Assembly (NCBI GenBank): GCA_044892525.1
Contig: CM097885.1
Coordinates: forward strand, 204,414,001 to 204,478,000
DNA length: 64,000 bases
Source: Schmidtea polychroa
Lineage: Eukaryota
Reading direction: 5' to 3'
The notes below the pieces were generated by a model. The model saw only the letters and a list, made by a program, of their open reading frames with translations. It was not told the DNA's origin and made no database searches. The translations under genes and the position numbers were made by a program. Positions 24,169 to 63,665 of the stretch are shown one piece after another; the stretch's first letter is position 1, and every line of letters begins with the position of its first letter.

Positions 24169-26403
24169 TTACGATCTTCCGAGAACTGGTCGAGAAGTGC
24201 TCAGTGGTGCTGTTGGAGTATTAACGGAAGGCGCAACCGTCGATATGGTTGGGAAAACAGCTGCTTGCGAGGTTTGCGCGACAAATGACGGTTGAAATGG
24301 TTGAGAAAATTGATTGAGTCGGCTTGGAGTAGTTGGAAGATAAACTGGTTGTATATAGAATTGTTGTGGAGTACTGTTGTCATAGCGACCACTGGTGTTG
24401 GTGGATGCACTTGGTTGTATTATTTGATGGTAAGGCTGGTGAATGGAAGAAAATGTATTCGCCGACTGTTGGGGTGAATTAGCGGATGCTGCGTGCGATG
24501 CTTGGGGCATATTTAAGAGTAGCGGTTGGTAATACTCTAAATTTGGTATCATATGATGATAATTGATAATTTGCGGTTGATTCGATGGTTCTGTAAGAGG
24601 CTGGGTTGAAACCGGTTGAGATTGAGGAATTTGAAGCGGTTCTGTTTGGTTACGCAGTTCTGAATATCGTTTTGGCACAAATGATTGAGTCGGTCGGTTC
24701 TGATGGGATTTACTATCGAATTGTGGAACAGATTTCTCACGAGCGAATCTCGGAGCTGGAGGATTGTAAGAATTCATTGGACGTTTCTGTAATTGATTGA
24801 TTTCTCTGTCAGTCAACGGTGGCATTTCTTCAATAACATCTTTAAAATCGCAATTAGCATCCCATTCAAATTTTGAGTTGGCCCAGTCGGGGATATTTTG
24901 TCTGTTTCGATTTATCGATTGAGATATTCCGGGAGATTTTTCTCGTTCGTAATTGCTGTCCGAGAATCTCTGTTGAGATTTAGAATAGTTTTGTTGAGAT
25001 GAATTGCTCCCTTCACGTTGTTTAGGCAGATAATTATTTTTGCGTTGGAAATAATTTCCGGATTTTCGGTGTGCCACGTAACTTTTTTGAAGAGACATGT
25101 CGGTAAATTTTTGGTTAATGTTTCGTTTAGGCGTTTCTTGTGCAAGTTTCCGGTTTTGATTGGTTTGTTCGGATTCTTGAACTTTCTTAGCCAGATAATT
25201 GTCCAATTCACTCGATTCGATTTGTTTATCGTTATTTGCATCGTTACGGCGATAATTCTGATTTTCAAAGGTCCGAGATTGATAAACTCTTTTGTTTGAA
25301 TTATTGCTAATACTCTCGATTTGCCTAGTGCCAAAATTGTCAAGATTTACCGTAATCTTTATGTCAGTATATTCCGCTATTTGGCTATATTTACTTGGAG
25401 GCTTTGGAGCTTTTTTTGGTTTAACTTCCGGAGAATAACTTGACCTGTAATTTCTATTTTGATTATAATTACGATTGTAGTCTGTACTCGATCGATTCCA
25501 AGAATTATACTGAGGCTCATAATAACTATAATCATAATATCCACTGTTTCCATAATAATAAGAATTATAGTTATCGTAGTCATCATAATATTCATAATCA
25601 TAATAAGATCTTTGTTTATAATTTTGATGCTTATAATTAATTGCTTTATTATTTTTCTTTCGATTTTCTTTGAATTCCACATTATCGTTCTTATGTCGAA
25701 TATCGGCGCCATATTTATTGATTAATTCTATTTTAGAAATAGGTTTTTGCTTCCTTTCATCATAAAGATCATGTGACCAAACTTCGTTTGTTTTACTATG
25801 TACATTTTTTGCATTCTCGCTTGTTTTTTTGGGTTCGCCAATTTCAGAATCTTCTAATCTTAGATCATGCATATAAAATTTTCCATTTGTTGGTATAAAT
25901 GTTGGGTTATTAATATCTTTTGATTCAGGGTCACGCTTGTTATCTTTAGATACATGATTTTCTATAATGTATTCTAGATCTTCTTCACACTGTTTTAAGC
26001 CTTCTTCAGTTACTTCTGCTTTGGGTAATTCTTGTACACTTTCCGCTTGCTGAATATATTCGGCATCATATATCCAATTATCTTTACTTTCATCCCATGA
26101 ACTGGTTTCTTCGTCAGAACTTGGATTTTCACGACATGAACCTGGCCGAATATCATCGTCATCATCATCATCATCAGGGCAAATTTCCACGGGATCTAAA
26201 ATTTCTTTTTTATCATATTCATCGATTTTATCTTGATTTGTACACGATAAAAAAGATTTCTCGGAATCATCATCTTTCATTGGTACATTAGTTATTCCGT
26301 CAATTACAGAATTTACACAGGACTCAAAAGATTTATCAGAATCAATATTATCAGTTTCTTTTAAATTAGCACTTTCAATTTTATTTTCTTTGTTATCAGT
26401 CAT
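24169..26403 (-). CDS. CASC3: CASC3/Barentsz (MLN51) exon-junction-complex protein, 744 aa, uninterrupted ORF
   Basis: Btz/SELOR motifs NPTFIPTNGKFYMHDLR and WSHDLYDERKQKPISKIELINKYGADIR; acidic N-terminus, low-complexity Q/P/S C-terminus. Confidence 0.85.
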   Translation of the reverse strand: MTDNKENKIESANLKETDNIDSDKSFESCVNSVIDGITNVPMKDDDSEKSFLSCTNQDKIDEYDKKEILDPVEICPDDDDDDDDIRPGSCRENPSSDEETSSWDESKDNWIYDAEYIQQAESVQELPKAEVTEEGLKQCEEDLEYIIENHVSKDNKRDPESKDINNPTFIPTNGKFYMHDLRLEDSEIGEPKKTSENAKNVHSKTNEVWSHDLYDERKQKPISKIELINKYGADIRHKNDNVEFKENRKKNNKAINYKHQNYKQRSYYDYEYYDDYDNYNSYYYGNSGYYDYSYYEPQYNSWNRSSTDYNRNYNQNRNYRSSYSPEVKPKKAPKPPSKYSQIAEYTDIKITVNLDNFGTRQIESISNNSNKRVYQSRTFENQNYRRNDANNDKQIESSELDNYLAKKVQESEQTNQNRKLAQETPKRNINQKFTDMSLQKSYVAHRKSGNYFQRKNNYLPKQREGSNSSQQNYSKSQQRFSDSNYEREKSPGISQSINRNRQNIPDWANSKFEWDANCDFKDVIEEMPPLTDREINQLQKRPMNSYNPPAPRFAREKSVPQFDSKSHQNRPTQSFVPKRYSELRNQTEPLQIPQSQPVSTQPLTEPSNQPQIINYHHMIPNLEYYQPLLLNMPQASHAASANSPQQSANTFSSIHQPYHQIIQPSASTNTSGRYDNSTPQQFYIQPVYLPTTPSRLNQFSQPFQPSFVAQTSQAAVFPTISTVAPSVNTPTAPLSTSRPVLGRS

Positions 26404-26833
26404 TAACTAAAATTAAATACATTTCAAATAATTTAAAGTGCTTTTTAAAATTAAGAATTTTTAAATGAAATTATAGAAATTTAAAAAAAATACTTGTTTA
26501 CTAAATAAAAACAATTTTATATAAATAAATATATTTTAATTAGAAAGATAAAAATTAAATTAAAATATAGATACTAATATATTTCATCACAATCCACATC
26601 TTGATTTTATTTTAAATTATTATTTTCAAATAAATTAATGATAATTAAATTATTTAATTTTTAATGGAGTTAAAAACAAGTTTATATAAATTTATGGTTT
26701 GCACATATTTATAATAAAAAAAAATTTGAAATTTTTTATTTTTAAAGTTATACAATGCTTCACTGCTTAATTGGCATACTTTAATTATTTTCATTTTCTA
26801 CAAAATTTTAAAATTTATCTATATTATAGTGGG

Positions 26834-29617: not shown

Positions 29618-29809
29618 TACATTCACACCAGCTGTCCCGAGACAGTATTTTTAAGGAGACTCGGCTGGGATCTACAAACCTTCTTATTATGCACACATAA
29701 ACATAATATACATATTTAATATACATATACATAGTAGGGTAACATGTGGACCCGGGAACAAAGACATATGACATCATCGATGGCGTAACAAAGACATATT
29801 ACGCCATAC

Positions 29810-30060
29810 CCGGTGGAGGAGGGTTTTTAGGCCAAATTTTAAGGTCAACTCAAGGTAAAATTTTAAGGTTAACTTAAGTTCATAGTAAGGTCACAGTAAG
29901 GTCAACCTGAGGTCAAATATTTAAAAGATTTTAAATTTGAATTCCCAAATTATTGTACCATCGATATAAACCATATAACTACTATTACGCGCACAGTGAT
30001 ACTCTGAGTTTATTCGACAAGATATTCTGTCCCCTTAAGGGTACTGCTCACAAATTATCA
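29810..30060 (+). repeat. Copy 1 of a dispersed modular repeat (AAGGTCA cluster plus CGACAAGATATT-GTCCCC-GGGTACTGCTCAC module)
   Basis: AGGTCA-like motifs 29841-29915; tactctgagtttattcgacaagatattctgtcccc...gggtactgctcac at ~30000-30050, also seen at ~34430 (+) and ~60650-60715 (-). Confidence 0.7.
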
Positions 30061-30166
30061 ATAGAAATATTGTAGCAAAACTCATATAGTCTATCAACTA
30101 ATCATAATCATATGGCACACAATTCTGTAGTATAAATAAAACATTATATTTTAAATTGCTGTAAAA

Positions 30167-30665
30167 ATGTCAAAACCTAATTTCATTGACAACTTGCTAA
30201 AAGTGGTCGTCAACAAAAACATTACGGAAAGCCTCAGTTTCCCAATCAATCGGACTGAACAAATTAATAAAGGCAATCATATCGACTACCAGAACACGAT
30301 GGATATGGAATGCCTTGAAACAAAGAAGTTTTATTTTAATCGAATCTTCAATTGCCTATTCGACGAAGAAATGAAGTGGACCCGAATAATTGTATTATAT
30401 GAAAATTATCATCGAAAAAAGTTTATGGGACTCAGAACATTACTACCAGTGGTCTCAAGAAGTAATTTATTTTATAATCTATATTTTAATAATATTAATT
30501 TTTTAGATAATCAAATCCAAATTTATTTCATGGATAGAAGCCAATGGCGGATGGGGTGTATTAAATCAACTCGCCCGAAATGCAAAGGAAATCAACGAGC
30601 ACAAAATAAAGTTTAAAAACTATATTCAACTTGCAACAGGTGTTGCTATCTAGTATATTATTTGA
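30167..30665 (+). pseudogene. Bcl-2 family gene (frameshifted, with a probable 45-bp intron)
   Basis: BH1-like CLFDEEMKWTRIIVLYE; after a +1 shift near 30403 and removal of a GT..AG intron at 30462-30506: EHYYQWSQEIIKSKFISWIEANGGWGVL (BH2); hydrophobic tail IQLATGVAI*YII broken by a stop. Confidence 0.8.
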
Positions 30666-30715
30666 CGTTTTTGAATAAAAATTAATGTAGTTATCATTCA
30701 CATTGATTTCTTCTT

Positions 30716-31479: not shown

Positions 31480-31860
31480 TAACCATCAAATTTTTTATAC
31501 AACAACTATGCCAAACAATGTTAACCACATGTTTGAGTCAATGGATTTTGAAACATAGTTTTATTATATACAATAGGTTTCCCAATTGTTTGCAGTTTTG
31601 ATATCAACAAATCAGGATAATAGAAACCCATAGGATCGAATACGAATATATTACTAGGTTTCACATATATAACTATCCAATGTTCTACACCAAGATGAGA
31701 CGAATGAGTATTTACGATTATGGCTTTATTATTGCTCAAATAAGGAATTTTATCGAGAGGAAAAACTCCTAAAAATTCATTTCCTAATATTAGTTTTCCA
31801 ATTCGATTAACCTGATAATAAAATTAAACAGTATCAAAAAACTTACTCCGTGACAACTTT
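31480..31860 (-). pseudogene. Polinton set A adenain-like cysteine protease
   Basis: FLGVFPLDKIP...AIIVNTHSSHLGVEHWIVIY...VFDPMG...FQNPLTQTCG*HC; contains stops. Confidence 0.85.
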
Positions 31861-31875
31861 CTATATTTCTGTATA

Positions 31876-32836
31876 CATTTATACTAGCGCGGTTCTATTT
31901 GCAGTAATTTGAACTTCATTTTCAAATACTCCATATATAATAACATTTACCGGTTCTGTAATGGCCTTTGCAAACTTTATATCCAGTCGTAAATTCCCGT
32001 TTTGTGGTAGTTGACTCTGATTTAAATCAAAATCGGGGGCTAAAACAAATGTGAAAAATTGGTATTTGGTTTTAAATTCTTAAAGAGTTATTCCACAATT
32101 CAAGTTTTTATCTAAATAACCCAGATTTTTAACAATAATCTGCATATATGTCGCACAGTAATTATCGCTTTCAAAATCTCGAGTATATGTTTCTCTATAA
32201 TCAGTATTTTTAGACAAAGTCAATGAAGAACACCAAAGTTTTTGAAAATTGAGCTGGAAGCAGTATAAGACCCATTATATTGTGTTTCACTTTGAAATGT
32301 TATCAGAATAAAATTAGGCATTCTTCTGTCACCAAATATTTGTTCTTTATAGAATGATGAAGCACCTTTAGCAATATCAAATTGTACAATTTCTTTTGTT
32401 TTTAACGGATAAATTGCATGTTTTGAATTAAGACCCAATTGATGACCAGCTAATACTGATGGGTCTACTCGAACTCTTCTCAACAATAATTTTGCATCAA
32501 CTAATTGGCATATTGGTGCACCTGCATTAGTCAGAGATAATGCAGAATCGGACTTTTTCAGTTTAATGTGTACATTTCTATCAAGGCTTTGTGAATGAAT
32601 GTATTATTTCCGCCCTCAATCTTGATATTATTAAATCCCAACACTGCATCTTTAAACAGAGTATGAAACAGGAAATTGTTCGGTATTACATCTGCATCGG
32701 CATCCAAAACCTTTCTATCTTTATCTACAACCTTGATCTGAACAGTCAATAAAGTATCGTTCAAATCTAAATATTCAGTTTGCGAACCATTAATATAAAA
32801 CTCGATATCATTTCTACTATCGGTAATTGAATTCAT
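31876..32836 (-). pseudogene. Polinton set A major capsid protein (PY/hexon-like), internally deleted and frameshifted
   Basis: IEFYINGSQTEYLDLNDTLL; NNFLFHTLFKD; LRRVRVDPSVLAGHQLGL; RMPNFILITFQSETQYNGSY; GNLRLDIKFAKAITEPVNVIIYGVFENEVQIT. Confidence 0.85.
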
Positions 32837-32868
32837 AGGAAAAACTTCCTCAAAGGTCCCAAATTCGA

Positions 32869-33290
32869 TTACCGCTTGAGACGATGGTCTATCAAATATA
32901 CATAATTCGGATTTACCACAAATAATTTTGCAAATATAGTTCCATGTCCTTTCATTCGTTTGTTTATACGTGATATTCCATGTCCTTTACGTTTTGGAGC
33001 TGGGGCTGGAGGTGTATCTTTTTGAAACATACCAGCAACTCCAGGTAGAACCTTCCCTAACTCAGCTAAAGCATTTGTTTTTAGGGATGGTAATATTTTC
33101 TGTTCATTCATAATCACGTCTTTAGCAGTTTTCATACCAAAACTGCTATACGTTTAAGAATAGGTAATAAGAATAGGTAATGAAAATCTCCCTATTGTTT
33201 TTAACCAACCTAATCCGTACTGTTTACCAACGAAATATGGTAATTCACCGCAAGATTGGCTATCACTATAGTAGTATGATTGGGGCCATC
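32869..33290 (-). pseudogene. Polinton set A basic core-like protein (PW-like)
   Basis: YYYSDSQSCGELPYFVGKQYGLGWLKTIGRFSLPIL...GMKTAKDVI...SLKTNALAELG...KRKGHG; stop and frameshift. Confidence 0.65.
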
Positions 33291-33294
33291 TAGA

Positions 33295-34620
33295 CCAGGG
33301 GCCCTCTGGACCACATACCCCTCCCCCACACCCCCCGGGAAATTTTTTTTTAAATAAAAGGTCAAGGTCAAGGTCATTTTTTTTTGTTTTATTAATTGGC
33401 CCAGCGGGCTCACACTTTTTTTCATCCCAAAAACTAATCTTCCCGCCAACGGATTTTTCTGAGCGATAGCTCATCTTAAAGACCAGTGCAAGACCTTTAA
33501 GATGTGCTATAGGTATTTTATATATCTATAATAGTTTTAATGTTATTAACATTTGATGACCACCATCTTTTCAAAGTTAAATTATTATTATTTTTCAAAA
33601 TATTATTAAGTGGCCTGGCGGAGTCATACTTTTTTTCATCCCAAAAATTAATGTTCCCGCCAACAGATTTTATTGGACGATACCTCATCTTAAAACCCAG
33701 TGCAAGACCTTTCTAATGAGATATAGATTTCTATCATACTATGCCTCATATTTTTAGAACGATGCCTCAATCGATGCCACATATTTTTAGAACGATGCCA
33801 CATATTTTTAGAACTATTACGTAATCGATGCCACATATTTTTAGAACGATGCCTAATATTTTTAGAACGATGCCACATATTTTTAGAACGATGCCTCATA
33901 TTTTTAGAACGATGCCTAATATTTTTAGAATGATTACGTCATATTTTTAGAACGATGCCTAATATTTTTAGAACGATGCCTAATATTTTTAGAACGACGC
34001 CTCTTATTTTTAGAATGATTACGTCATATTTTTAGAACGATGCATCTTATTTTTAGAATGATTACGTCATATTTTTAGAACTATTATGTAATCGATGCCT
34101 AATACTTTTTAGAACGATACCTAATATTTTTAGAATGATTACGTCATTATTTTAGAACGATGCCTCATATTTTTAGAACGATGCCTCTTATTTTTAGAAC
34201 GATGACTCACCCTATGACTCATAATTTTCCAAAATATTATTAATTGGTCCAGAGGGCTCACACTTTCTTTCATCACAAAATATAATGTTCCCGCCAACCG
34301 ATTTTATTGGACGATAGCTTATTTTAAAGCTCTGTGTAAGAACTTTCTAATGAGATATAGAGATAATTATAATCATTATTAATTTAAAAGATATTAACGC
34401 CCGCGTGGAAGATGTTATTATTATTATATACTCCGAGTTTATCCGACAAGATATTCTGTCCCCCTATGGGTACTACACACATGGGTACTGCTCACAAGGG
34501 TACTGCTCACGCTCAACAAGTCACATGGGTACTGTTCACAAAGTTACTACTAAAAATAGTCAAGACAAAACTTTAACAAAGAAATTCTTAATATTATACT
34601 TTAAATATACACTAAAACTA
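33295..34620 (+). repeat. Copy 2 of the dispersed modular repeat, expanded with three ~120-bp direct repeats and a minisatellite
   Basis: ggtcaaggtcaaggtca at ~33360; ~120-bp units at ~33395, ~33600 and ~34235 (ttcccgccaac core); terminal module at 34425-34545 with repeated gggtactgctcac. Confidence 0.75.
33741..34207. repeat. 21-bp minisatellite (catatttttagaacgatgcct), about 20 units with variants
   Basis: Head-to-tail units, variant atgattacgtcatatttttaga, no unique spacers. Confidence 0.9.
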
Positions 34621-34954: not shown

Positions 34955-35735
34955 TTAGTCTGACAATAAAATATCATCTATATCTATTTCATCATCATCA
35001 TCATTAGGATCATCACCAGAATCGAAATCTGGACTTAAACCATCGTAAAGTGGACCCACTTCCCCATCACCAGAATCGAAATCTGGACTTAATCCTCCGA
35101 ATAGTGGCCCAACTTCTTCAAATATTTGATCATAATTTATGTCATCTAGTGCTAAATATGACCATATGCGAGACTGGAATTTTTCCCGACCCAAAACCGC
35201 TTGTCATCGTTGTTTGACAACGCGATTTTATTGTTTTTAAATGTGTACAATTGATGGTTCCGCGTCCCTATCTTACTTTGTGGCACAGAAAATACTACGT
35301 TGTTATTGTAGCATTTTAAATATGAATCGTGCCTAATTTCTGTACCTATTAACCTGACTCCCTTTGCTTTTAAATGATCTTTAGTCCCTAACAAACTATA
35401 GCACTTGGGTCTTAAGAAAACCCATTCCTTATACCCTAGACCTTTACTTTCATCTTTAAATTTACCTATCACAGAATCAAGGTTTCTAGAGTATAAGGGA
35501 TGTGCAGGGTCATAGTTGGAAGTGTCTAAAAGATTGTCACGAACCATTGCCGACAAAAGAGTGTCAAGCTTACAGTGCCTAACCTCAAGAAAAAAGGAGT
35601 CAGTATCGCCGGCAACGATATTTATTTCACATTTAAATTCATTTCTATATTTAGCCAATTCTATATACTGTAACTGGTACATCATCAGTTTAGACAGGTC
35701 TAGTACCGTTTGGCCAATGTAGCTAGGCCTGTCTA
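34955..35735 (-). pseudogene. Polinton set A protein-primed PolB, C-terminal fragment only, followed by an acidic repeat segment
   Basis: RPSYIGQTVLDLSKLMMY, AGDTDSFF, LDTSNY, IGKFKDE, LRPKCYS, KAKGV, DDKRF...LAYGH; 5' truncated at ~35735. Confidence 0.9.
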
Positions 35736-38700
35736 AACTGAGGAAGAACCCTATGAAAAAGAAAACTATAATTGGGATAACTTTAACCATGTAGATAAAT
35801 TTGAACAACCATTTATATCCTCTTCATCTTTAGAGTATATAAAAAGAAATAAACAAAAAATAAAAAACTCAATGGATGATGCTATAAAAAAATTTGGTAA
35901 ATCAAGATTTAATGTTATCATATATAAAATTAGAATCCACTCAAAATATTGGAGGGGTGAAGATGTAAACACAGCAGTCCTAGACCGTATTATTGAAACA
36001 CCTTATAATTATTTATTCTCAACCCAGGGATTTAAAAAAAATTAAAGATATTATTCATAAAGTTGAAGAAGAGCATAGAGTGGTTGAACAAGAATTAGGA
36101 GAGTCAAACCTAAAATTCCATTCATTTCAATCACTTGAAATCGAATATTGGAGAGGAGCACCTCCAAACCCTAAATCATATATCCCTACCCCCTTTACTT
36201 CACATTATAAATATTCGAAATAATGATAATAAATGTTTCCAATGGTCAATACTAGCACATTTACGTCCTCAAGAAAATCATAAAGAAAGACCTGCAAAAT
36301 ATAAGCAATATGAAAATGAATTAATATATCCAAAAGGATTTAAACACCCAATGAAGATTGAATACATTCCAAAATTTGAAAAATTAAATAATATTAAACT
36401 TAACATTTATGAATATATTGGTCAGGTGGGTGATAGGAAACACATTATCCCAATTCACATTTCAAATATGGAATTATTAGAACAAGATAAAAATAGAGAA
36501 ATATATCTTTTAATATTACAAGAAAAACAAACTTATAGGGAATATGATGATCTAGATGAGGAAGAACAATATTTAAATATTCAAGAGTTAAATCTTGAAG
36601 AAGAGCAAGAAGAAGACATTGAGATGAAACAATATTATATCCTCATAAAAAACTTTCAAAGTTTTATGCGATCAAAAAGTCACCACAGTGGTGGAACAAC
36701 ATGTAAACGTTGTCTATATTATTCAGCCTCAAACATTGCAGCATTTAAACATGAAAGATTATGTTTTAAGAACCTACCAGCATTAATTAAAATGCCAAGC
36801 AAAGAAAAGTCTAACATGCACTTTAAAAACTTTTCAAACTTACTAGAATCAGTGGGAGTAATATATGGAGACTTTGAAGCTATAAATATAAAACAAGATT
36901 TAGAGCAAGAATATTTAAAAATAATAGAAAAAAATAATCTATTAGAATCTTGGAGGAACGACCCTCGGGATAATCAACGAGGATGGGAAAGTATGAAAAA
37001 CTTTCTAGACTTAAATAATAAATCTTATACAGTAAAACTAACAAAACAAGTAGCATCAGCTTATAAACTATTTTTTAAAAGTAACTACCCCGAACTTATA
37101 GAATCTAAAGAATATTCATATAGAGGAATCACAGAAGAAGAAACTCTAAATCATTTTCTTAAAGATATAAATGATTTAGAACATCAAGTATTTAAAATAT
37201 TAAAAACAAACTTTCTAATAAACTTTTCAGAACAACAATGGGAAGAATATGAAAACGCAACAACTTGTTGGATGTGCAAACAACCATTTGAGAATTCTGA
37301 AAGAGGTCATTCTGAAGGTCATTCTGAAGGTCATTCTGAAAGTCTTGAAGAGGAAGAACAAAGACTATTTCACGAAGGACAAGAAAGACATGAAAACATA
37401 AAAGTCCCAGATCATGACCACTTTAAAAAACTAAACAACTTTACGGGTGCAGCACATAAAAACTGCAATATTAATTGTAAAAGACCAAATTTTGTACCAG
37501 TTATATTCCATAATCTTTTTGGATATGACATCCACTTATTCATAAAACATTTAGCTGTAAATGCTAAAAACTCTTTCAAGGTTATAGGACTTACAAAAGA
37601 AAAATATAAATGTGTTCAATATGGACGATTGAAGTTTATAGATTCCCTAAACTTTCTATCAATGTCCTTGGATGGAATAGCTAAAACAATGAAACCAGAA
37701 GACTTCACCTACACAATAGAAAAAGTATTAGTAAAAAATAATATTCCCAGGAGGAATATAAAACCTGTTTAGCAAAGGGAATCTATCCTTATGATTATAT
37801 AGATTCTTTTGATCGTTATAATGAAACAGAACTACCAGGTCTAGAGGAATTCTTTTCAACATTAAATCAAACAGATATAAGTGACCAGGAATATACCCGA
37901 GCAAATAAAATGTATCAATTATTCATATGTAAAAACATTGGGGATTATACTGACATGTATTTATCATTAGATGTTTATATCCTTGCAGACTGTTTTGAAG
38001 GATTTTGCAAGGCATTTGAATTAAAACCCTACAACTATATAACATCTCCATCTCTAGCTTGGGATATATTATTATATACTATGTGGACCTCCAGCTCTGA
38101 GTCCATAGAACTATTAACTGAACTCGACATGTTTAATGTACTTAAAGAAAATATTCGAGGGGGTGTTAGCTCCGTGATGGGAGACCGAGAAATCACTGCA
38201 AATAACTTCCTATCTCTCTATAAGAAATTCTTTAGTGAAGATCCAAATGCAGACTATATACAAATAAAAACAGAAGAAGATTCAAAATTAATAAAGGAAG
38301 GATTATCAAATCCATCAGAAATAATGTATATAGATGCAACTGCTCTATATTCAGGAGTAATGACTCAATACCTTCCAATTGATAACTTCATTCAGGTTGC
38401 TGTCCCAGAAGGTGCTGTCCCAGAGGAAAAGGATCTACTCATGAATCAAATATTATCAACAGAAAAAGATTCAGAAGTGGGATATATAATAGAATGTGAT
38501 TTAGAATACCCCAATGATATAAAATATATTACTAGATACTTTCCATTTGCACCAGTGAAAAGGAAAGTAGATTCCAATGAATTATCATCCCAACAAGATA
38601 GACCTACAACCACAAAACTTTTATGTGATCAAACTGATAAAACTTATTATCTTTGTCACTATAGGTTGTTACAATTTTATCTTTCTCATGGGATGAAAAT

Positions 38701-46035: not shown

Positions 46036-49000
46036 GTGAACCGATATTATTTACGAAGCCAGAGTAAAAAGGAAGCTACAATGAGCAGTGAAGATTTACC
46101 AGTTTCAGTTATTAAAGAAAATAATGATTTTGCCAGTTGTCAAAGATTGCCAGTAGAGCAATATGGAGGAGATCCAATTATTTTTGTTGATTTTATGAGC
46201 GATTACTATATGTATGCAACGGCTTATGGATGGTCTCAAGCAATAATGATTCAAAGATTACCCTTATATCTTAAAGGAGCTGCTAGAGAGGTTTGACAAC
46301 AAATCGACAGGAAAACAATCGGCAATGATTGGGCCAAATTAAAAGATGCATTGGCTGCTAAACTTATTGGAGGAGATATAAAGAGATTAATGCGTCAGAA
46401 ATTTTATAATAGAGTTCAAAATCCAAATGAAACAGTGAGCGAATTTGCATATCATTTATCGACCCTTTCCAGCAAATCCTTTGAAGAAGATTCGAAACAA
46501 CCAGGATTAGCCCAACAGATGCAGGAACTGATTCAAGATCAATTTTTGTCCGGAGTAAATAAAGAAATAAAAACGGCATTATGTTTTGTAGAGTATGACA
46601 ATTTCGATGAACTAGTTAAAAAGGCAATGAAAATCGAATTGAATCTAAAGAGCTCTAAAAGTAAATCTGAGGTATTTGCAATAATTCCAGTACAAAGAGA
46701 GAGATCAGTAACCCCAACCCACGACAATTGGGAATCAGGAAATAGATTTCAACGATCAAAGAGCCCATCACCCAAATGGAGAAACGATAATAATAATATG
46801 AACAGAGCAAGCCAAAATTCACCCGGCACCGAGAGAGCTAAAGTTATTCAGTGTGATATTTGTAAGAAAATTGGCCATTATACAAATCAGTGTTGGTTTA
46901 AAAATAATTCTGAAAGAGTACCCAGGAGATTGAGTCCCGATTGGCAGAGAGATAATAAAGGAACGAATTTGCGGAGAGCAATTCCTAATGTGAAGTCAAA
47001 CTTTAATGAAGTACAATGTTATCGCTGTGGTAGAAAAGGACATGTTTCTAGAAATTGTTTTTCAAGATCGAGATCACCATCAATGTCACCATCACCACAA
47101 AGAGATAATGTGAATTTAAATGGACAAATTCAATGTCATTTATGCAGAAATTATGGGCATATTGCAAGATCTTGTCCCAGGAATTCCGATAAATTTCAAA
47201 GACCAATTTTGAAACGAACGATTAGATTTCAGGATGAAAACCAATCAAAGAATAATGTTGCTTATGTTCAGAAAGATAAATTTGGAGAAAAAATTGAGAA
47301 CGATGTCAAACAATTGAATCAAAAATTGAATAAATTGATGGCGAAATTTGAATCAGATGAAGAAACAGATTCTCATATGATAACAAAACGAAAAGTGAAG
47401 ACAGATGAATCCAAACTTGATGATGTTACAAGAAACAGAATTAAAACGGATATGCAAAGTGAAAAGAGTACAATACTTATTGCTAATGTCAGAAAATTAG
47501 TAACAGAACCTGATGCAAATTTTCAGAAATTGACAGAAGTGTTGATGATGCTAACGGAAATACCGTTGAGTTTAACCAAAATTAAAACTGTTATTAAACT
47601 TTGTACTGAATGTTATGCAGGAAGTGTGGAAAAGCGAGATGTATTTGAAAAGTATATGAAAGAATTTGGCCAAACTCTACGAAAAATCAAATGGTTAGAC
47701 CCGATATTTATTAAAACAAATACATTAGACGGCACCAAATCCGAGTATCAAGTTGAAGCATACGGAAAAATACGCGAGTTGAAAAGAGAAATAATGCACA
47801 AATGTGAAGTTTGGGCAGTAGAACTTAAATTTATGGGCCGAGTGTTGGAAGACGACGAATTTTTGATAGATTGTGGATTGATCCCCGGTGTTGAAAATGA
47901 GATACAAATAATAAGCATGATTGCCAATGAAAAACCAGTCAAATATGATGTCGATAAAATTAAATTTGAATTAAATGAAGCATTGATCAAGGAAGACACA
48001 GGTGATATTATTGATAAATTAAATAATATTTTGAATTTAGAATATGAAGTGCAAGATAAATTAAAAATTTTAGATTGTGTCAGACCCTATGTAAATTATG
48101 ATAATAAATATAGTGAAATGATAAAAAAGCTTATTCGTAAATTTGGACAAGAATTTAGAGAAAAAGGAGTTTATATTGAGCCATTCGTAATAATGTTAAA
48201 AATAAATGATCAAGAAGTGGAATGTACCAACGAGCATTGGTGTACGAAAGTGAGTAAACTACGACGAAGAGCAGCAGATATTATGGGCAATGATGGAATA
48301 ATTGTATTGGTATACAAAGGTTTTGAGTTAGATGATGATGAGTATTTATTTGATTGTGGCTGCGTACCACGAAAATTTGATAAAAATGGATCTTTGGCGA
48401 ATCAGGAAACGTTTATTAATGATTTAGTTGCGATGAAACAATTTGAATCAAACGAAGTAGAAGAAAGCTTTAAAATGGAATTACCAAACTGGAAAAATGA
48501 GATAATGAGTAATGATGATGAGATGCACGATGAACAAGAAATGAGAAGAGATGAAATAGAAAATGAAACTGGAGAAATTATTGTTAAAAATGAGATGAAG
48601 ACTGAAAAAGATGAAATAGAAAATGAAGCGGAGCAGATTATTGTTGAAAATGAAATGAGAACTGAAGTTAAAAATGAGGCATATATGACCAAGATGACGA
48701 TTGATAATGATATTAAAGAAAAACAATGCAGAAATTTGTATGAATTAAGATGTAAAATAATACAGAAATTTCAAGAGGAGAAAGATCAGAAAGACTCAAA
48801 GGAAACTGAGAAAATTGTACGTGCTCTAGTAAACGAATTATATGGTGAATCAATAGAAAGAATACAAGTTGAGAAATATGTGAGGAAAATTGCAAAGAAA
48901 ATTAAAAAGAGATTTTGTGTAGTGTTAAAACAAGCACAAGAAAGTATGGAATTTTGTGATGACAATGTGATAACTGAGATGATGACAAGAAAAATAGATA

Positions 49001-50247
49001 GAGATATGGTATTAACAATTATGAGTTATATTTTGTTAGAAATCGGAACCTATGATTGCTCAGATATGGAAAAACAAGAGGAAATAATTAAAACGGCAAG
49101 TAAAGTTTTACATAAACATGTTGGCAAATGGATAAAAGAGAATGGAGGTTGGAAGAAGCTGATTAAACAAAAATTTGAACCAGTTGTAAAAATAAGAGAA
49201 AATTATGATGGTGTATTAAAAAGAAAACCCGTAAAAGTTCCGTTTTTAATGTCTATGATCTTAATATTATGTGCAATTATAACTAAAACCTCTTCGTTAA
49301 TTGCATATGATTGCACTCAAATAAAGATTGGGAAAGTTTATTCTATGGTGGATTGGCAGTTCGCAACAAAATTAAAGACAATTCAAAAACTGTATAATTT
49401 CATACACATTCATCTTTGGACAAAAGTGTGGAGGAATCTTGTCGTAATAGAACCGATGATGAAGAAAGTTTATATGTATTGGACAGCCAAAGAACAACAG
49501 AAAATCAAAATAATTTTTCAATACCATGTAATTGAGATATTGAGTAAAGGAAAATCTTTTGTCAAAAATGGGAATCTACAGAAATCTTTTCATGGTTATG
49601 AAACCTGTACGAACAATCATTGGTCAAAATTAGAATCTAAAGCTGAAATAAAATACGTTAATAACAAAGGAAATCGTGTTCAAATGCAGATTTATAAAGA
49701 AATAATTGTATTTAACAAGACAAAAGTCGGAAAAGGGGTAAATGTTTTTATAAATGATAAAATTCAGGTAGTGTGGGACGAACATCGACAACAAGCAAAG
49801 AGTAGCCTTCAAAATTCAAAACCGAAAGCAACATTAAATGAATTAATGACAAGAATTATGCATTGCAAGCGAAAAACTAACGCTGACCGGTGGCATATTG
49901 TGTTAATCGAAAAAAGACATATTGATCTTCATAATAATAAATTCTTTGAGAACATAACTATTAATCAAAAGTTAAAGTTGTCATTGACATTCTCACGTGT
50001 AAAAAACAACAGTCTATCATTAAACAATGAAGAGAACTTATCTCGTAACAATTGTATTGAATTACTATTCATATGTATCATTGTGACAATAATAAGCAGC
50101 ATCCTACTCATCTATATCATCATCAAAGTTGAAAACAAAAGGAAAGAACAATCATGTTCATCAATCGCGATATTCAAAACCACAGACAATGATGTGGTTA
50201 GAAACATTTGTTTAGTAAGATATTATTATTGCATGTTATTGACCTAA
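46036..50247 (+). CDS. Gag-2xUBL-Bcl-2-like-TM-env-relic polyprotein with one in-frame TGA at 46294-46296
   Basis: Gag core (FYNRVQNPNETVSEFAYHL), three CCHC knuckles; UBL-like 47701-47890 and 48181-48370; BH2 WIKENGGW at 49129-49152; hydrophobic VPFLMSMILILCAIIT then LIAYDC; C-terminal TM ELLFICIIVTIISSILLIYIII. Confidence 0.8.
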
Positions 50248-60945: not shown

Positions 60946-62182
60946 TCTTTCCACCATATAATTTCATTTCTATTTTCTTTTCTTCTAATATTAATGTATA
61001 TACTTTAGTTTTAAAATCAGAATCCTTTGTTATATGAAGTGTAACATCAACATTATTTATAGCTAGGCGATCATCTTGATCTGAAACATTTATACAAAAT
61101 ACAGAATATAAATTTTTGAAATCTTCTAAACTTAATTGTGGTTCAACTTTAAAATCATAACATGTTTCAATATAATTTAGATATGGGAATATGTTTTCAT
61201 TATTTTCAATATTAAATTCCATTCTATTTATTGGATAATAAGAACTATTTAATTGAATTTGTATTGATTTTAAATTATCATTTCCAATCTTTTGAATAAA
61301 CAAGTTGTTATTTTTATGGAATGATAAATCTACTTCTTTGAATCCAATAAAGATGAATCTCGGTCGGTATGCTAAATTTGCAACCTTTATAGAATATGTT
61401 GAACCCTCTGTCATACTAAATTCACTACAGACTCTATTTAAATAATTTACATTTATAGATTTGTTGGAATTTAATCTTTCAAGGAGTTTGATTTCAGATT
61501 GAGGATTTAAAGTCCATTCAGGTATATGTAATTGAAGTGTTGATAATTTTAATTTAGCTTTTGTATCTACACCTCCATAGAATAATACTTTATCAACTAT
61601 TACTCTATTACAAAGTAATTCTATAAAAACATTATGAAGTATACGGTTATAGTTTTGAAGGAATCCAAACAAGTGTTTTAATTCAAAATAACCTTCAAAT
61701 TTTTTAGATTTATAAAGTTCAACTCTTTTATGGTAACCATAATTTATATCTAAACCATCTTTATCTAAATCACCTTTATTAACATCAGGAATCCAACCTG
61801 TTAATTCTCCATATTCATTTTTATAATCACAACCAGTTAATATAAAATTTAACATTGTAGAATATATTCCTGGATGTAAAACAGTTTCAATTTCTGATGA
61901 TCCTAGTTTTAATCTCATGTTGGAGAATAAATTTGGAAAGAAATTATTTTCTTGGGTTATATCTTTGTTTGCTTCAATTTCTAATTCAATTTTCTAATAT
62001 AATTTTGCATTACAAATATCTATAGGATTTGATGTTTGAAGAGATTGAAAAACTATATCACCTGAACGATTTAAGTTTGCAATAGATCCCGAAGTTGGTG
62101 ATATTTTTAAAACATCAATTTTTTTAATTTCATGCATAAACTCTTTATTATAATCAAGATTTAATTTATTTTTATTAGCCAT
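60836..62182 (-). pseudogene. Polinton set B major capsid protein (hexon-like) with one in-frame TAG at 61994-61996
   Basis: LNRSGDIVF, PNLFSNMRLKLGSSEIETV, LKHLFGF, LQLHIPEW, PRFIFIGFK, IQIQLNSSYYP, FKNLYSVFCINVS; ORFs 61994-62182 and 60836-61918 are in the same frame. Confidence 0.88.
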
Positions 62183-63072: not shown

Positions 63073-63137
63073 TTTTTAAATTTAAACTACGTAATTATTG
63101 TTTATATTGATAATTTAAATGAACTCCGTTTTAAAAC

Positions 63138-63184
<47 letters not shown>

Positions 63185-63203
63185 TTATAATTATTTCATT
63201 AAA

Positions 63204-63665
63204 ATGCTTTCAAATATAAATTACAGGGCAAAAGCTGATGTATCAAAAAAGGTATTTCCAATGGGGAAACCACAACAACTTATCAATAGAAGTAAAAAAT
63301 ATCCCATAATATATTTCAAAACTGGTAAATGTAGAATTATGGGGTGTAAGGAAATAATCAAAGCTAGTGAATATAATGTTTATGATTTAGAAATACAATC
63401 GATAACCGTAACTTCCGATATGGGTTTTTCTTGTAATTTAAATAAATTGGCTAAATTAATACCATGTGTTTACGAACCAGAATTATTTCCAGCTTTGAGA
63501 TATATAAAATATAACCCTATGTGTATAAATATATTCACTAGTCGTAAGATAGTAATTCTTGGAATAAAAAATATTGATTACAAATGTATAGTTGATAAAA
63601 TCATATCTGAAATTAAATCAATAATTGAAGGAAAAGATTTTTTTAGATTTTTTATTATCACTTAA
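63204..63665 (+). CDS. Miniature TATA-binding-protein-like gene, 153 aa, intronless
   Basis: Repeat 2 DLEIQSITVTSDMGF...YEPELFPALRY...INIFTSRKIVILGIK parallels TBP DFKIQNMVGSCDVKF...YEPELFPGLIY...LLIFVSGKVVLTGAK; repeat 1 reduced to IIYFKTGKCRIMGCK. Confidence 0.85.
   Translation: MLSNINYRAKADVSKKVFPMGKPQQLINRSKKYPIIYFKTGKCRIMGCKEIIKASEYNVYDLEIQSITVTSDMGFSCNLNKLAKLIPCVYEPELFPALRYIKYNPMCINIFTSRKIVILGIKNIDYKCIVDKIISEIKSIIEGKDFFRFFIIT

Follow-up and report, generated by a model that had tools for sequence, protein, structure and literature searches.

The window (the whole 64,000-nucleotide stretch of Schmidtea polychroa DNA analysed here) contains a gene that, by its sequence, belongs to the Bcl-2 family and has two exons. 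It lies at the terminus of a Polinton, as a dead copy of a gene that an abundant Polinton (Maverick/adintovirus) lineage carries as fixed cargo. The account that we consider probable as a whole is that of a decayed two-exon cargo gene which likely derives from the host gene bcl2-1, probably acquired its intron within the element, and likely inhibits apoptosis. The features of this element end and of its surroundings are collected in Table 1.

Table 1. Features at and near the Bcl-2-bearing element end (positions in the window).
Feature	Position	Strand	Remarks
Polinton terminus, 5'-AG end of terminal inverted repeat	29733..29758	+	similarity to other copies stops there
Short repeat upstream of the gene, shared with other Polinton stretches	29999..30052	+	89% over 54 nt to 34428-34481; possible promoter element (candidate)
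Bcl-2-family exon 1	30167..30461	+	N-terminal helices, BH1, helix 5, start of helix 6; frame broken after 30394
Phase-0 GT-AG intron, 45 nt, inside helix 6	30462..30506	+	GT at 30462, AG at 30505-6
Exon 2 of the Bcl-2-family gene	30507..30653	+	end of helix 6, BH2, start of tail; early stop
Adenain-like maturation protease	31521..31823	-	Pfam Peptidase_C5 E 5.9e-5
Likely major capsid protein gene, in pieces	31882..32986	-	three pieces match a 421-aa ORF of a related element
Polymerase-related stretch	35152..35823	-	Pfam DNA_pol_B E 0.098 (weak)

Family membership becomes clear from the relatives of the window copy. The window ORF alone gives a marginal match to Pfam Bcl-2 (E 0.047), and the sister copy L004, translated across its intron with the in-frame stop written as X, reaches E 6.7e-7 and 30.2 bits, just below the 31.4-bit cut-off of the profile (PF00452). 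Several sister copies and an intronless relative exceed that cut-off. Among PDB sequences, the best match of L004 is BFL-1/A1 (E 0.0014), with Bcl-xL chains also matched; a profile built from eight relatives matches Bcl-xL at E 4e-8, and the top three Atlas clusters carry PF00452. The Bcl-2-family assignment proposed in an earlier note, made from the DNA letters alone, thus stands on the L004 profile score, on sister copies above the cut-off and on PDB matches within the family. Structurally, the intron-bearing Polinton genes retain the W-x-R of BH1, the W..GGW of BH2 and a hydrophobic tail, and are collinear with host bcl2-1 over their full length. The predicted folds are all-helical and of low confidence, both for the intronless relative (single-sequence model, mean pLDDT 56.6) and for L004 read through the intron with X (alignment-based model, mean pLDDT 49.5). 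Foldseek returned no match at E<=0.001 for either low-confidence model, and all matches listed for that of L004 were Bcl-2-family chains with TM values of 0.2-0.3, none of them significant.

Within the window, the 149-aa ORF that opens at the ATG at 30167 carries the BH1-like stretch LFDEEMKWTRII in its own frame, and the BH2 motif SWIEANGGW follows in the next frame; ORF, BH1-like stretch, helix 6 and BH2 all lie where the earlier note had placed them. The break between the frames is another matter: instead of the +1 frameshift proposed near 30403, comparison with L004 reveals an 8-nt gap after 30394. Exon 2 stops at 30651-30653 after 48 codons, where L004 has 59, and little of the hydrophobic tail is left (peak 17-residue hydropathy of 0.45, against 1.86 in the open copy L004 and 1.53 in the host protein). 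The hydrophobic tail described previously is therefore whole in L004, which qualifies as having a C-terminal membrane tail, and incomplete in the shortened window copy, which does not. The 8-nt gap and the loss of most of the tail make the window gene a pseudogene, a dead copy with two breaks, the frameshift after 30394 and the early stop at 30651. Weak splice donors at 30449 or 30452 had been suggested as a way to restore the frame without a frameshift; they are rejected as unnecessary, because exon 1 of the sister copies stays open to the equivalent of the main donor at 30462.

The 45-nt intron keeps the bounds first drawn for it, and intact versions of the gene were found elsewhere in the genome. 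Among 61 exon-2 hits examined, 19 are open two-exon genes (two pairs being both ends of one element), and the other 42 failed as open genes. The introns of the open copies measure 44, 45, 46, 47, 48, 51 or 52 nt, all with GT-AG ends. These lengths cover all three classes modulo 3 (13 of the 19 are not a multiple of 3), and the flanking exons are of fixed length (99-101 codons for exon 1, 58-59 for exon 2). A splice junction of the kind to be sought in RNA-seq was also found: one contig of run X6, placed on L004, skips exactly 45 nt. Since this contig is only ∼82% alike to L004, it comes from a sister subfamily. Unspliced contigs are present in the RNA runs as well, and the runs contain mature RNA, as all four splice a host gene (4/4). 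With its GT-AG ends, its length free of the reading frame and one contig that skips it, the spliceosomal intron is well supported as real. Against the host protein it aligns as a 15-residue insertion. A point against the intron is its identity between subfamilies (67-91%), which is no lower than that of the exons (71-99%), though the introns are 85-96% A+T. A contig of run X5 terminates at L004:2123 with 21 consecutive A residues, 8 nt past the position of the stop codon, possibly the poly(A) site of a related transcript.

Linkage of the gene to the element rests on the terminus and on the neighboring genes. The gene starts 434 bp inside the element end at 29733, where similarity among the closest copies stops sharply, and these copies have in common a ∼960-bp unit (29733-30693). 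An AG-type terminus lies 300-450 bp upstream of the gene in 17 of the 20 closest copies (the window copy counts among them), against none of 10 more distant ones. When the genome was searched with the region, 40 of the 1820 candidates were scored, and these are 83-94% identical; a 21-nt terminus motif has 68 exact matches in the genome and a 27-nt BH2 motif 326, against 0 for the control in each case. Polinton core genes occur within the 10-kb stretch taken for 19 of 20 sampled BH2 copies, compared with 7 of 20 controls (Fisher p 1.4e-4), where the sample is one in five of the first 100 BH2 matches listed, all of them on contig C1 and mostly of other subfamilies than that of the window, and the controls are 20 evenly spaced 10-kb stretches of the same contig (L117-L136). 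The terminus and the core-gene counts establish the gene as Polinton cargo, as the earlier note had suggested, and not an ordinary host pseudogene, its homologs being regularly found beside Polinton genes. The presence of core genes in 7 of 20 evenly spaced control stretches also documents how very abundant these elements are in the genome.

The gene occupies a regular place in the element. A TBP gene is its neighbor in 14 of the 20 sampled copies, on the opposite strand in the usual order, and the whole order, end-Bcl2-TBP-ATPase-integrase-360-aa ORF-capsid-protease-polymerase-end, is seen in a 15.6-kb element flanked by a 6-bp target duplication. The defining marks of a Polinton, AG...CT inverted-repeat ends and the 6-bp duplication, are found in related elements, and the window copy displays one end only; the duplication is perfect in 3 of the 7 elements with both ends found, and in the element of the intronless family. 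One full-length element carries the gene once, just inside a ∼695-bp repeat, and the idea that the gene always lies inside the terminal repeat is accordingly rejected as a general rule. Nine further regions have the gene at both ends, within inverted stretches of ∼0.8-5.4 kb; they were chosen for looking like inverted pairs and so give no estimate of frequency, and one of them, which extends into flanking DNA, may be a genomic or assembly duplication. Near-perfect inverted end duplications of 2-5.4 kb (95-99.7%), which place the Bcl-2 gene and a portion of the polymerase at both ends, were seen at L031, L110+L137, L139+L112, L140 and L142. Such long inverted duplications suggest end-copying during linear replication, or later duplication.

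The window element itself is rearranged, its Bcl-2-bearing end abutting the protease-capsid block. No partner end turned up in the window, in the 10 kb upstream or in the 20 kb downstream. The distance from 30665 to the end of the protease ORF is 856 bp, in agreement with the ∼0.8 kb given before, and the Polinton-associated repeat reported upstream of the gene was recovered; sister copies also match 60648-60715. For the capsid gene, the 421-aa ORF of the related element scores 0.98 against Atlas clusters, one of which has PF21738 (double jelly roll) in 15% of its members. It has no match in Pfam or PDB sequence searches, and the capsid label is therefore likely rather than proven. The polymerase-related stretch has 63-72% identical pieces in elements that bear the Bcl-2 gene, and is related to the window's other polymerase (DNA_pol_B_2, E 5.5e-10). 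In the gene-bearing elements, the integrase has rve_3/chromo matches and aligns with the window's rve integrase at E 1e-33, and the polymerase, with no direct Pfam match, is assigned by similarity to the window's DNA_pol_B_2 ORF. A related element has a packaging ATPase (Pox_A32, E 1.8e-7) and a protease (Peptidase_C5, E 1.6e-6). The 360-aa ORF, which gave no hit, is a putative minor capsid gene, a guess from its position.

Other parts of the window also contain element or host genes. A small TATA-binding-protein (TBP) homologue lies at 63135-63665 (+; Pfam TBP E 1.6e-12), with another at L146:3525-4016 (E 5e-15). Positions 54217-61993 hold a second Polinton family with a double jelly-roll capsid, an A32 ATPase, an integrase with a PLA2-like domain and a protease, and this family is repeated just downstream of the window and also nested in L041. 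A host CASC3/Barentsz exon (24169-26406, -; Pfam Btz E 3.5e-15) lies 3.3 kb from the element end.

A search of the genome with Pfam Bcl-2, in which 150 of 909 candidates were scored, points to the source of the gene. The scored candidates include host-like genes, Burro-type polyprotein domains, intron-bearing Polinton genes and an intronless 144-aa Polinton gene, which lies between TBP and polymerase. The element that carries the latter (L082-L084; G000:C1:247538628-247555208) represents a second Polinton family; its terminal repeats are 1.5 kb long, and it has a 6-bp duplication. The host gene L058 scores 59-65 bits against the intron-bearing genes, with seven other host genes at 38 bits or less, and is closer still to the intronless Polinton gene (95 bits, 39% identity). 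No Polinton gene lies within 10 kb of it. L058 is 89% identical to Schmidtea mediterranea ACW83059.1, which a supplementary row of PMC4993586 identifies as bcl2-1; passages in PMC6970515 and PMC4993586 report systemic cell death and lysis upon bcl2-1 knock-down. Phylogeny against the host paralogs, which the earlier note had called for, gives a divided answer. The grouping with the bcl2-1 orthologue has support of 83/92, unstarred, in a tree of 17 rows, which leaves out the Burro rows, ENA fragments and most near-duplicate copies, and of 49/34 in a tree of 39 rows that includes Burro. In AU tests, placing the intron-bearing genes with L054 (p 0.087) or with L060 (p 0.18) was not rejected, L047 alone being rejected; one capture against two gave p 0.50. 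On similarity and on the smaller tree, L058, the host bcl2-1 orthologue, is the likely donor. L047 belongs to a cluster of seven near-identical host-like Bcl-2 copies (L047-L053; G000:C4:89.9-90.8 Mb) that either arose by recent tandem expansion or is an artefact of the assembly. Burro was considered as donor or recipient; similarity does not support this (<=29 bits between Burro and the intron-bearing Polinton proteins), and the 39-row tree does not settle it.

Substitution patterns indicate purifying selection on the gene during the spread of the element. Between subfamilies, dN/dS is 0.08-0.20 at dS 0.5-1.8 in 17 of 17 pairs; within subfamilies it ranges from 0.27 to 1.36 on few changes, the value of 1.36 coming from two copies of the window's own subfamily. 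These values fit selection during the active life of the element and neutral decay after insertion. In the proposed mechanism, open copies would make a ∼160-aa tail-anchored mitochondrial protein whose BH1-BH2 groove would bind BH3 helices of Bak/Bax-type or BH3-only proteins. The host cell, kept alive, would allow time for replication of the linear element, and single copies, that of the window among them, would decay neutrally once inserted. The BH1, BH2 and tail motifs, the phenotype of the donor and the purifying selection together argue for such an anti-apoptotic role.

The same cargo with the same origin might have another function, as a modulator of innate immunity or autophagy like some poxvirus Bcl-2-fold proteins, or as a pro-death or dominant-negative protein that aids particle release. 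The strong divergence of the intron-bearing proteins from the donor (only 24-29% identity to L058) is consistent with this, as are an Atlas neighbor cluster with Poxv_Bcl-2-like in 11% of its members and the loss of the BH1 arginine in the intronless family. However, the intron-bearing genes keep the BH1 and BH2 signatures, the tail and the collinearity with bcl2-1, and the NWGR glycine is missing from host bcl2-1 too, although that protein is reported to be anti-apoptotic. Another function is therefore unlikely, if still the strongest of the competing explanations. A bolder extension of the favored anti-apoptotic reading is improbable: bcl2-1 would have been taken by Polintons, acquired a new intron, come under selection and multiplied to hundreds of sites, in many cases at both ends of an element, and open spliced copies would now add to the death resistance of the host. 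If open copies do aid host survival, a DNA virus-like element would join Burro1 as a second case of transposon-host mutualism.

The history of the intron bears on the mode of capture. The earlier note took the retained intron to imply capture at the DNA level, a conclusion that the host gene does not support. The intron of L058 is 2972 nt long with GT-AG ends, is spliced in 4/4 runs and falls right after GGW, the usual BH2 intron of the family, and L058 has none in helix 6. The Polinton proteins read on past GGW into a tail that aligns collinearly with the second exon of the host, so that the host intron is absent from them, and the second Polinton family has no intron. Since the host intron differs and is absent from the Polinton copies, and a related family is intronless, the evidence argues for gain of the intron inside the element and not for DNA-level capture. 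The simplest history would be capture through a processed bcl2-1 mRNA, or loss of the long host intron after capture, followed by gain of the short helix-6 intron in one Polinton branch.

DNA-level capture could still be saved by a host paralog, now lost or undetected, that had the helix-6 intron. The trees do not fix the donor, and a six-frame search would give a low score to any host gene whose helix 6 is interrupted; with 150 of 909 candidates scored, such a paralog could have been missed. Against it stand, besides the mismatch of introns and the intronless Polinton family, the eight distinct host-like Bcl-2 exons examined, all of which (8/8) run unbroken through helix 6, and the search with the host exon, which found no second cellular copy of L058. 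Capture with the intron is accordingly improbable, and intron gain within the element remains the preferred reading. That the gene is a functionless passenger amplified by its proximity to the terminus, or an ordinary host pseudogene near a Polinton, is very improbable: most examined copies are broken and Polinton genes are common in the control stretches, but the fixed gene order and the linkage to terminus and core genes, the fixed exon lengths around a variable intron, and the low dN/dS between subfamilies already largely refute it.

The meaning of these results is best seen beside known systems. Adintoviruses carry Bcl2 and IAP homologs, according to passages of Starrett et al. 2021 (PMC8502044), and the elements described there are of the same class as the present one, with polymerase, integrase, ATPase, adenain, capsid and an accessory Bcl2 homolog. 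Planarian terms were not found in the main text or the supplement text searched of PMC8502044, and its passages offered no noticeable analysis of donor, intron or selection, whereas the planarian gene is spliced, terminal and moderately well traced to a host gene. Polinton, Maverick and Bcl have no mention in the main text of PMC11410931, and no published description of a planarian Polinton Bcl-2 gene was found in a literature search that had most subscription papers outside its reach. Introns inside Polinton-like elements are reported for dinoflagellates in a passage of PMC11957031. In sequence collections, relatives in the 90% collection and the 50% representatives are only planarian-like proteins on short contigs; viral contigs yielded none, and metagenome contigs one 1405-nt locus without context. 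Bcl-2 as Polinton cargo is thus already published, and what the present case adds is the likely donor, the apparent gain of an intron within the element, the selection and the copy number.

Planarians have another mobile element with an apoptosis regulator. Burro giant LTR retrotransposons carry BCL2-like and IAP domains (in passages of PMC6431247), and the function reported for Burro1 acts through its IAP region (as cited in PMC13465017). Burro resembles the present Polinton in that both are planarian mobile elements with an apoptosis regulator, a BCL2-like domain included. Unlike the Polinton, Burro is a retroelement in which the domain is fused into the gag polyprotein, and the similarity between the two is weak. 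The window itself contains a Burro-type retroelement at 46297-50247 (+): its gag-like ORF combines zinc knuckles with a ubiquitin domain and with a Bcl-2-like domain that scores E 0.005 (E 0.00015 over 48700-49300), a layout described in PMC6431247. Many long ORFs of this type occur in the genome, among the 150 of 909 candidates scored.

With respect to the host, bcl2-1 (ACW83059.1 / FJ807655.1) and L058 are the nearest cellular relatives of the Polinton gene, collinear with it including the tail and with BH1 and BH2 residues in common. They differ from it in being single-copy, in having the long intron after GGW and none in helix 6, and in a longer loop after helix 1. The case amounts to a traceable acquisition of a host cell-death gene by a Polinton, with a likely donor of known RNAi phenotype, intronless and intron-bearing branches and measured purifying selection. 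It supports the view that Polintons behave as viruses that need to manage the survival of host cells, and it offers a rare polarised candidate for intron gain within a mobile element. Its function is testable, since planarians allow RNAi and, according to passages of PMC8532177, their Polintons are piRNA-repressed and de-silenced during differentiation.

The closest viral parallel is adenovirus E1B-19K, to which the gene had been compared from the start. The comparison extends to position: E1B-19K, a short Bcl-2 homolog, is encoded close to the end of a protein-primed linear DNA genome that belongs to the same broad group of viruses, and it binds BH3 helices of Bak/Bax-type or BH3-only proteins. 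The E1B-19K profile (PF01691) gave no match in Pfam scans to E 1, and the gene does not count as a member of that family; PF01691 is present in one Atlas cluster at 0.85. By analogy, the two genes likely serve the same purpose, with no homology shown beyond the Bcl-2 family itself; the planarian Polinton gene looks to have been captured from its own host, independently of E1B-19K.
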